Below, piece after piece: positions 259 to 2,170 of a DNA stretch of 2,519 nucleotides. The stretch comes from Escherichia coli (lineage in GTDB: Bacteria; Pseudomonadota; Gammaproteobacteria; Enterobacterales; Enterobacteriaceae): the NCBI RefSeq assembly GCF_003334355.1, contig NZ_QOWP01000074.1. One strand, given 5' to 3'. Made by a program: the position numbers and the translations under genes. How positions within the stretch are numbered: position 1 is the stretch's first letter; every line of letters starts with the position of its first letter. Below the pieces are notes generated by a model. That model saw only the letters and a list, made by a program, of their open reading frames with translations. It ran no database searches and was not told the origin of the DNA.

Positions 259-1227
259 ATGGCGAACTACGCGATAATGCGCTGCAAAAAGCTGACGGGA
301 ATGGGAAGCGTGGCCAGCGCGTTGCAGCACTGCTACCGAGAGCGTGAGACGCCGAACGCTAACGCTGAACGGACACCAGAAAACTACTGCTCTGTGTCCA
401 AATCAACGGATCAGGCAATGGGGCGTGTGCGGGAGCTGCTGCCGGAAAAACGCCGTAAAGATGCGGTACTGGCCGTTGAATACGTTATGACAGCAAGCCC
501 TGAGTGGTGGAAAGAGGCCACACCACGGCAGCAGGCGGAGTTTTTCGCCCGCTCTGAGCAATGGCTGGAGAAGAAATACGGGAAGGATCGTGTTGTGGCG
601 GCGGTGGTTCACCGGGACGAGGCCACCCCGCACCTGTCTGCGTTCGTGGTGCCATTGACGCAGGATGGACGGCTGTCCGCGAAAGAGTTTATTGGCGGGC
701 GGTCAAAGATGCGTGAAGATCAGAGCACCTACGCTGAATCAGTAAAAAAACTGGGTCTTGAGCGCGGCATCGAGGGAAGCCGCGCCACGCATCAGACAGT
801 TCAGCACTACTACGAATCGATAAACCGTGGCACCCGTAGCCAGGTATCGATCTCGCCGGAGGCGCTGGAGCCGCGTGTATTGCGGAAGGGCATTTTCACC
901 AAAGACGTGGAAGATCAGGCAGCCATAGCCAAACGTCTAAGCCACGCAGTGAACGATGGCTTTGCAGGAACCATCGCTATGGCCTCTCAGAGCGCCCAGA
1001 ACGCAAAAAGAGCGCGTGAGCTACAGAAGACTATGGATGCGCAGCAGAAACGCCTACAGAGCGTCACAGAGCCTTTTAAGGGGCTTTCCAGAGAGCAGAT
1101 GACCGAAATCCTGATGATGGCTCAGCGGTTTAAGCAGCAAAACCAGGAAAAGGAAAAACAGCAGCGTATTGAACGTGAAAAACAGCGACAGACGCGATCG
1201 CGTGGCATGGGTGGTATGGAGCGTTAG
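259..1227 (+). CDS. mob: Plasmid mobilisation relaxase, Mob/Pre (MOBV) family, 322 aa from ATG 259. The ORF track's upstream in-frame ATG at 238 would add 7 residues (MPESGGN) and is less likely.
   Basis: N-terminus MANYAIMRCKK...SALQHCYRERE has the same layout as pMV158 MobM (MSYMVARMQK...FKHNER), including the HxxR motif with the conserved His. It also carries RKDAVLAVEYVMT and VVHRDEATPHLSAFVVP (HxDExxPH metal-binding motif), then GLERG and HQTV, all matching MobM from memory. A G-rich Shine-Dalgarno (AGGGGGG, 249-255) lies 3 nt before ATG 259. The long uninterrupted ORF is GC-rich and ends with a Q/E/K/R-rich C-terminal tail. Confidence 0.9.
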   Translation: MANYAIMRCKKLTGMGSVASALQHCYRERETPNANAERTPENYCSVSKSTDQAMGRVRELLPEKRRKDAVLAVEYVMTASPEWWKEATPRQQAEFFARSEQWLEKKYGKDRVVAAVVHRDEATPHLSAFVVPLTQDGRLSAKEFIGGRSKMREDQSTYAESVKKLGLERGIEGSRATHQTVQHYYESINRGTRSQVSISPEALEPRVLRKGIFTKDVEDQAAIAKRLSHAVNDGFAGTIAMASQSAQNAKRARELQKTMDAQQKRLQSVTEPFKGLSREQMTEILMMAQRFKQQNQEKEKQQRIEREKQRQTRSRGMGGMER

Positions 1228-1255
1228 TTTTGATGCGATGCAGGATAGGGCTAAC

Positions 1256-1280
1256 GCCGCAAAGTGACGTCATTTGCGGC
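1256..1280. repeat. Near-perfect 25-bp palindrome GCCGCAAA-G-TGACGTCA-TTTGCGGC between the convergent mob and 76-aa ORF ends.
   Basis: The outer 8-bp arms are exact reverse complements and the central TGACGTCA is itself palindromic. No U-tract follows on either strand, so it is not a canonical intrinsic terminator. It could be a protein-binding site, a structure-dependent transcript end, or a single-strand initiation or resolution signal. Confidence 0.5.
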
Positions 1281-1296
1281 ATTCACCACGAAAAAA

Positions 1297-1527
1297 TTAA
1301 TCATTCAGATGGTAATCATGTTTTTTTAAAATAGAAAAAGCTGCGTTTTTCTGCTTTGGTGACAAACCCTTAGTTGAGTATTTATTACCGCTAGTTCTAC
1401 GATATATGCTGTAAACACTGCTTAAAAAAGTACGCTCCCAAACAGTCAGAACCTCATTCTTTTTTAGTGAATCATGCAGCATTAGCCTGTCTACATTTTT
1501 AAAAAGTTTATCTTCAGCATTCATCAT
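1297..1527 (-). CDS. Hypothetical small basic protein (76 aa) of unknown function, probably co-transcribed with rep.
   Basis: The ATG-ATG start (1527-1522) overlaps the last 14 nt of rep in another frame. A GAAGG Shine-Dalgarno motif lies about 6 nt upstream on the - strand. Composition matches rep, and the stop is TAA at 1297-1299. No family recognised; the protein is Lys/Ser-rich. Confidence 0.4.
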   Translation of the reverse strand: MMNAEDKLFKNVDRLMLHDSLKKNEVLTVWERTFLSSVYSIYRRTSGNKYSTKGLSPKQKNAAFSILKKHDYHLND

Positions 1528-2060: not shown

Positions 2061-2074
2061 GTCCTTTGCATCAA

Positions 2075-2170
2075 GTACGATTAGTACTTGAGGTGAGTAC
2101 GATTAGTCCTTGAGGTGAGTACGATTAGTACTTGAGGTGAGTACGATTGGTACTTGAGGTGAGTACGATT
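2075..2170. repeat. Iteron array: four complete 22-bp direct repeats (2075-2096, 2097-2118, 2119-2140, 2141-2162) plus a partial fifth copy (2163-2170). Likely Rep-binding sites of the vegetative origin.
   Basis: The unit GTACGATTAGTACTTGAGGTGA is exactly tandem with 22-bp (two helical turn) periodicity. Copies 1 and 3 are identical; copy 2 has one change (A to C at 2108) and copy 4 one change (A to G at 2149). The array lies immediately upstream of the rep promoter region. Confidence 0.9.

Follow-up and report, generated by a model that had tools for sequence, protein, structure and literature searches.

Very small 'cryptic' plasmids are stripped down to little more than the essentials. The stretch of Escherichia coli DNA analysed here (2519 nt, referred to as the window) contains a mobilisation gene, a replication gene (rep) and, directly behind rep on the same strand, a small open reading frame (the ORF) that had been singled out from the sequence alone as a candidate for an undescribed gene. 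It raises the question of whether this ORF is a gene and, if it is, whether its product serves the initiator of the plasmid, acts as a more general accessory of the replicon or is carried as cargo.

Plasmid layout and coding status of the ORF

The window is a small circular plasmid. A repeat scan found that bases 1–77 recur exactly at 2443–2519, indicating a circle of 2442 bp read with overlap, and complete plasmids of 2442–2445 bp from E. coli, Klebsiella, Salmonella, Shigella and Enterobacter match the window at 99.8–99.9% identity. This plasmid type is present in 29 of 5,426 complete E. coli genomes. The main features are listed in Table 1. As stated in the original prediction, the AT-rich composition of the ORF matches that of rep and the other half of the plasmid is GC-rich, the GC fraction being 0.35–0.42 over nt 1300–2100 (ORF and rep) versus 0.50–0.62 over nt 1–1200 (the mob half). 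A scan of the whole window against Rfam returned no RNA family.

Table 1. Features of the window, with positions in window coordinates
Feature	Position	Strand	Remarks
MobV relaxase gene	259–1227	+	NCBIfam MobV match, E = 1.7e-47
GC-rich hairpin between the convergent ORF and mob genes	1253–1283		11-nt arms; 14 nt beyond the ORF stop
Small ORF, member of a family with a predicted three-helix bundle	1297–1527	−	76 aa from first ATG (1527), 75 aa from second ATG (1524); stop TAA 1299–1297
Overlap of rep end and ORF start, different frames	1514–1527	−	14 nt (11 nt from second ATG)
GAAGG, Shine-Dalgarno-like motif inside the rep 3' end	1534–1538	−	6 nt before first ATG, 9 nt before second
rep, 167-aa initiator, upstream gene of the putative operon	1514–2017	−	stop TGA 1516–1514
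Direct 22-bp repeats, about 4.5 copies of AGTACGATTAGTACTTGAGGTG	2074–2170		repeat family D1; 22-nt spacing; upstream of rep

The window Rep gave no direct match in Pfam or NCBIfam. It is 35–39% identical to proteins that either match Pfam RepL (PF05732) or are named RepL by PGAP, identities that mark it as a distant member of the RepL-type winged-helix proteins. Two start codons come into question for rep: ATG 2017, which gives the longest ORF (167 aa), and GTG 1996 (160 aa), which PGAP often picks and from which relatives align. The direct repeats upstream of rep, which are accompanied by a partial inverted copy at 2071–2088, are presumably iterons that form the origin and the autoregulation site of the rep operon, as would be expected from iteron plasmids in general. 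In a further, unannotated element of about 80 nt at 2320–2405, an invariant TTCCGCTTCCTCGCT block is accompanied by a GCTGCGGCGAGCGGT block. The element is also found upstream of rep in L041–L044 and is common to 451 PLSDB plasmids, including conjugative plasmids of 30–200 kb and Arsenophonus plasmids. The element aligns with the sequence just upstream of the pUC/ColE1 ori and may be a primosome-assembly or single-strand initiation site.

The original prediction described a 76-aa ORF with an ATG-ATG start and a 14-nt out-of-frame overlap with rep, and this layout was confirmed from the sequence and the ORF list. The tandem ATG codons occupy 1527–1525 and 1524–1522, and the second Met is the conserved start, found in 96% of the rows of the family alignment described below. 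The GAAGG named in the prediction is also present, at 1538–1534. An 88%-identical relative (L033) carries AACGG in its place, and as the motif is not conserved there it is suggestive only.

Comparison of the ORF with the L033 copy revealed 21 synonymous and 11 non-synonymous differences (dS 0.74, dN 0.063, dN/dS 0.08), with 22 of the 33 differences falling in third codon positions; the adjacent rep gave a dN/dS of 0.04. The five other frames of the same stretch contain 3–12 stops and gave ratios of 0.19–3.9. Three broken forms of the ORF (P0008, P0009 and P0012), which are frameshifted or rearranged, are each represented by a single sequence, whereas 144 sequences cluster as the intact form. 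The ORF is thus a genuine gene that codes for a protein and is under purifying selection. Conservation, synteny and dN/dS had been proposed as checks in the original prediction, and all three were examined, with the results just given and a position behind rep that recurs in ten lineages. The opposing view, of a frame open by chance in the 3' UTR or terminator of rep or else of a conserved DNA or RNA element, could appeal to the shortness, AT-richness and lack of a family match of the ORF and to the hairpin that follows it, but is excluded for practical purposes by the low dN/dS, the concentration of differences in third positions, the single open frame, the retention of length and invariant residues in homologues at 32–60% identity, the lack of an Rfam match and the confident predicted fold.

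The gene is nevertheless not new as a record. It had been taken to be unannotated, which does not hold, as RefSeq already lists it as a hypothetical protein under WP_124788667.1 (76 aa) or WP_024196437.1 (75 aa, from the second ATG). A plasmidome paper (PMC7105644) has no more to say of it than 'a hypothetical one', listed with replication and Rec proteins, three in all. The gene is known as a record, and the family to which it belongs, of about 35 clusters, is uncharacterised.

Protein family and predicted fold

The ORF product has a pI of 9.7 and a net charge of +6. The earlier description of a small, basic protein without a recognisable family stands, since searches of Pfam (even at E ≤ 10), NCBIfam, PHROGs, PADLOC and the PDB (phmmer and profile) returned no family match, those to PADLOC and PHROG being at chance level only (E > 0.006). 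A HMMER pass over 1.84 billion representative sequences gave 13 matches, and profile searches of a set of 5.8 billion proteins gave 33–35 clusters. All family members are single-domain proteins of 51–87 aa that have no Pfam domain and are unnamed or labelled 'hypothetical', and iteration of the profile over the 5.8-billion-protein set uncovered no multidomain fusion that would hint at function. The only long match in the 1.84-billion set (P0013, 744 aa, E = 4.9e-22) was built from ten weak stretches and is regarded as spurious, the protein consisting of about ten tandem low-complexity repeats.

An alignment of the window protein, as reference row, with 24 other representatives (32–86% identity) defines a 'WExxFL...LSPKQK' family, in which a length of 62–76 aa is maintained in homologues down to 32% identity. 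Residues W30, F34 and K60 are invariant, and L27, E31, L35, K58, Q59 and L67 are conserved in at least 90% of sequences; the window protein has both the length and the conserved columns of the family. All 25 representatives are basic, with pI values of 9.1–10.2 and net charges of +3 to +7. The named sources are Enterobacterales, Aeromonas, Shewanella, Photobacterium, Pseudomonas and Arsenophonus, and the family is carried mainly on gammaproteobacterial plasmids. The same protein (the two RefSeq records, 97–100% identical) is found after rep in plasmids of 2.44–2.46 kb hosted by E. coli, Klebsiella, Salmonella, Shigella and Enterobacter. Further homologues (e.g., WP_029488008.1, WP_141071555.1 and WP_176702994.1) have neither a name, a domain nor a function in their records, and the place after rep is taken by more distant members in Aeromonas and in pLH09-a-F, a plasmid of E. 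coli.

Structure prediction had been suggested along with profile searches, which gave no library match, and it returned a confident model. AlphaFold2 (AF2), supplied with the family alignment, predicted an antiparallel three-helix bundle (pLDDT 90.1, pTM 0.79) with helices at residues 4–21, 29–45 and 57–69; in this model the conserved W-E-x-x-F-L motif opens helix 2 and S-P-K-Q-K opens helix 3. The predicted fold is uninformative as to function. A Foldseek search of AFDB50 detected only the family member from Aeromonas, viral models gave nothing significant, and the fold searches otherwise returned generic helical bundles only.

Several known types of small plasmid protein were considered and rejected. 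A ribbon-helix-helix repressor of the Cop/Arc/MetJ type is incompatible with a model that has no strand and begins helix 1 at residue 4, and Pfam gave no match. The product likewise does not have the features of a helix-turn-helix partner of rep (sigma-70 region 4 or LuxR-like), and the PADLOC and PHROG searches place it in no known anti-phage defence or phage family. The Rop/Rom protein of ColE1 is similar in being a small, all-helical plasmid protein, and would be a comparable case of a replication-control accessory that is not essential; even the N-termini are superficially alike (MTKQEK... in Rop, MNxEEKL... in the ORF family). Rop, however, forms a dimer of acidic two-helix hairpins and has the RNA I/RNA II system as its target, whereas the ORF product is basic, is predicted to have three helices and is found on iteron plasmids that have no known antisense RNA. 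Alignment by hhalign with the Rop sequence gave a probability of 2.7%, and Pfam again gave no match. Hha/YmoA proteins are also helical, of about 70 aa and often plasmid-borne, but share no common motif with the ORF product and gave an hhalign probability of 0.35% with Hha.

Genomic context and expression

The ORF or its homologue lies directly 3' of rep, on the same strand, in ten lineages, with a distance between rep stop and ORF start that ranges from −14 to +37 nt. The 14-nt overlap is shared by the window and L033, and L018 has a 4-nt overlap in the form of ATGA (−4 nt). Spacers are found in L013 (+11 nt), L010 (+12 nt), L022 (+13 nt), L009 (+18 nt), L041 (+19 nt), L037 (+24 nt) and L003 (+37 nt), and where there is a spacer the ORF is mostly preceded by a GGAGG-like motif of its own. 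The tight coupling to rep that had been proposed is upheld as regards position; the overlap is limited to the window clade and L018.

The Rep proteins encoded upstream fall into at least four groups that are unconnected by BLASTP. One is the type found in the window. Another, the pKL1-like 'RepL' of pLH09-a-F, shares 42% identity with the Rep of a 1549-bp plasmid (NC_002145). A third is a 191-aa protein with faint helix-turn-helix matches only, and a fourth comprises 141-aa RepL proteins from Photobacterium and a metagenome. Other arrangements also occur. Pseudomonas syringae plasmids of about 10 kb carry the homologue in divergent orientation beyond the GC-rich end of a Rep_3 origin that comprises, besides four 22-bp iterons, a DnaA-box-like site and stretches that are first AT-rich and then GC-rich. 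The layout of Rep and origin matches that of pPS10, the minimal replicon of which is not known to include a gene of this kind. Arsenophonus plasmids carry the homologue after a RepA-Rpn-ProQ/FinO series, with a 4-nt overlap with the end of the ProQ/FinO gene. On two large contigs the homologue stands alone beside a DNA methyltransferase gene and far from any recognisable rep, and a PIF1 helicase gene is also found near such stand-alone copies. An IMG/VR scan found no relatives of this large-contig subgroup, and family searches on the neighbouring genes in large or odd contexts gave nothing informative.

Some of the sequences that carry the ORF family are unusual in other respects. Contigs of 4.5–7 kb with a RepL-type rep and an ORF homologue (L013–L017 and L041) specify TrbL, a type IV secretion system (T4SS; PF07996) protein and an EexN-like lipoprotein downstream, an entry-exclusion and T4SS load that is unusual for such small replicons. 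Metagenome contigs L003–L005 contain two or three near-identical MobV copies alternating with two replicons (one with the 191-aa Rep and the ORF, the other with RepL), and represent either co-integrates of related small plasmids or their concatenation during assembly. The rep of this plasmid, with an 88%-identical, unannotated copy of the ORF, is also present at nt 1088–1805 of the 'complete genome' of Klebsiella phage KP13MC5-1 (OP617746.1, a T4-like Slopekvirus), near the end of the record and adjoining phage genes. This record probably results from chimeric assembly with a host plasmid, and a real capture of plasmid rep and ORF by the phage is possible.

Expression of the ORF was assessed from the sequence. 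A consensus scan found no separate ORF promoter, the sole minus-strand match inside rep being at the chance rate, and the two genes, overlapping by 14 nt, offer no space for a terminator between them. The hairpin beyond the ORF has a folding energy of −20.6 kcal/mol on minus-strand RNA (z = −2.4); it has no U-tract and was not called by a consensus terminator scan, and is likely to represent the 3' end or terminator of a rep-ORF transcript. Around the ORF start the RNA has less structure than its shuffled versions (z = +1.2), which speaks against structure-based unmasking of the start site. The start would accordingly be accessible without help, and coupling to rep is possible and not required. 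As in translationally coupled gene pairs, the downstream start lies within or next to the upstream stop on what would be the same mRNA, and the 14-nt overlap is a possible termination-reinitiation site.

The divergence of the ORF was found to be independent of that of rep. Across ten rep-ORF pairs, the pairwise identities of Rep and ORF products are uncorrelated (Spearman 0.14, p = 0.35). For example, L022 and L009 share 15% identity in Rep and 71% in the ORF, while L018 and L022 share 86% in Rep and 46% in the ORF. The ORF has been kept through a Rep swap (window and L003: Rep unrelated, ORF 56%, neighbouring mob gene 60%) as well as a Mob swap (window and L022: Rep 71%, ORF 60%, a different protein in place of the neighbouring mob gene). 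The family also occurs without MobV (L009, L013–L021 and Arsenophonus), and this, together with its survival of the mob swap, led to the rejection of a role as mobilisation accessory.

The ORF can also be absent. L043, with a Rep that is 71% identical, has in the slot behind rep (nt 1546–1836) an unrelated and unannotated 96-aa ORF, for which faint HTH_23 and Sigma70_r4 matches were noted. In L044, the Rep of which is 94% identical to that of L009, the slot (nt 1683–1913) is taken by an unrelated acidic protein of 76 aa. The slot is empty in a 2.3-kb RepL plasmid (L042), plasmids of the pKL1 type (1.2–1.55 kb) carry Rep alone, and in L010 and L041 a DUF4160/DUF2442 pair has been added after the ORF homologue. 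The post-rep position appears to be a variable cargo slot. In pEC0674 (NZ_MF684783.1; nt 2311–2526), which has this plasmid backbone, the mcr-5.1 resistance segment sits exactly where the ORF ends, replacing the last five codons and leaving a product of 71 aa with the conserved core intact. Judged by these comparisons, the ORF is modular and dispensable, and would be an accessory of the replicon and not part of the initiator machinery.

Candidate roles of the ORF product

The lack of co-divergence with Rep, and the survival of the ORF through Rep replacement, disfavour a partner that is specific for Rep, the iterons or the rep promoter, and favour a generic target. The explanation preferred here, with moderate confidence, is that the ORF is a dispensable and exchangeable accessory of the replicon, the distal gene of the rep operon, with a product that acts via such a target. 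It would be made from the rep transcript, and ribosomes ending rep could reinitiate on the ORF start, while the open GAAGG/AUG region would also permit direct initiation. The conserved basic surface of the product (R43, K58, Q59 and K60, plus K7, K23, K68 and K69) may serve for binding, either to nucleic acid without sequence specificity or to a gammaproteobacterial host factor for replication or maintenance, and the outcome would be improved establishment, copy number or stability of the plasmid. A more particular version, offered tentatively and rather doubtful as it stands, is a portable accessory that is independent of initiator type because its target is common to unrelated Reps. Such a target could be nucleic acid at the origin, in single-stranded or structured form, or a host factor for priming, helicase loading or remodelling, and as a result small iteron plasmids would be better established or maintained in Gammaproteobacteria.

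Several points weigh against the accessory explanation. Homology gave no pointer to a molecular activity, and basic charge is a weak indication of nucleic-acid binding; no nucleic-acid-binding family matched the ORF product and its predicted fold is not of the helix-turn-helix type. The unrelated small genes in the same slot imply that the position may be convenient for expression and have nothing to do with replication. Finally, the stand-alone copies on large contigs lie beside a DNA methylase gene and far from a recognisable rep. The original prediction had offered a replication accessory, copy-number or partition-like role. The first of these is the one favoured here, a role in copy number or as a partner of Rep is possible though less favoured, and a partition-like role has no support, the window having no ParA or ParB partner gene.

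The main rival is that the ORF is cargo and the slot behind rep a permissive one. Its product could be a factor that counters defence, aids establishment or modulates the host, and the gene would lie there for no other reason than guaranteed expression. The variable content of the slot, the behaviour of the ORF as a module of its own and the stand-alone copies beside DNA methyltransferase and PIF1 helicase genes would all fit such a factor. The association with replication regions, however, recurs across five replicon types, including the divergent arrangement next to the Rep_3 origin, and neither PADLOC nor PHROG provided a match. The product is also basic, unlike DNA-mimic anti-restriction proteins, and the large-contig subgroup has no relatives in IMG/VR. 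Taken together, a cargo role is a possibility to be taken seriously, if on balance an unlikely one.

Less likely is a Rep-specific regulator, a partner that would bind its own Rep, the iterons or the rep promoter and act as co-initiator or negative regulator of copy number. Small non-essential genes co-transcribed with rep are known from other plasmids and include copG of pMV158, copB of R1, the orfX that follows repB in lactococcal theta plasmids, and repB of pAL5000, and co-transcribed Cop repressors provide an analogue for the logic of such a partner. Like Cop-type and orfX genes, the ORF specifies a small protein, belongs to what would be the operon of the initiator, has a dosage that would track rep expression and is dispensable in some replicons. 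Feedback regulation would require expression in step with rep, and the tight linkage, with the ORF on the same strand directly after rep and overlapping it in the window lineage, points the same way. In the window clade, PLSDB contains 61 records with a Rep of at least 90% identity and 61 with an ORF of at least 80%; these equal counts also fit a partner, and are separate totals.

Against this, the ORF product has no sequence or fold relationship with the Cop-type and orfX proteins and no ribbon-helix-helix strand or helix-turn-helix, and unlike Cop-type genes the ORF lies 3' and not 5' of rep and is not bound to one Rep family, which argues against operator-specific repression. It follows Rep types that are mutually unrecognisable and with which its divergence is uncorrelated, and close relatives of these Reps replicate without it. 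Searches for a shared operator, which had low power, found no motif specific to the non-coding DNA of ORF-bearing plasmids; the sole enriched motif was the element of about 80 nt at 2320–2405, which is present equally in relatives that do not have the ORF. An AF2 model of Rep fused to the ORF product by a GS linker gave no confident docking (pTM 0.37), in a test that was also of low power, with a shallow paired alignment. A Rep-specific partner is quite improbable on this evidence.

To return to the accessory explanation, its unexpected part is the apparent independence from initiator type, from which it is predicted that orthologues will be interchangeable. A third gene maintained at a dN/dS of 0.08 in a replicon of 2.4 kb probably contributes to plasmid fitness. 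If the product does work with unrelated initiators it could also serve as an all-purpose element in the tuning of plasmid vectors; should it play no role in replication, the finding would still define a variable cargo slot after rep. The plasmid type is widespread in clinical and farm Enterobacteriaceae and can carry mcr-5. Knowledge of the function of the ORF would bear on the persistence of small mobilisable resistance plasmids.
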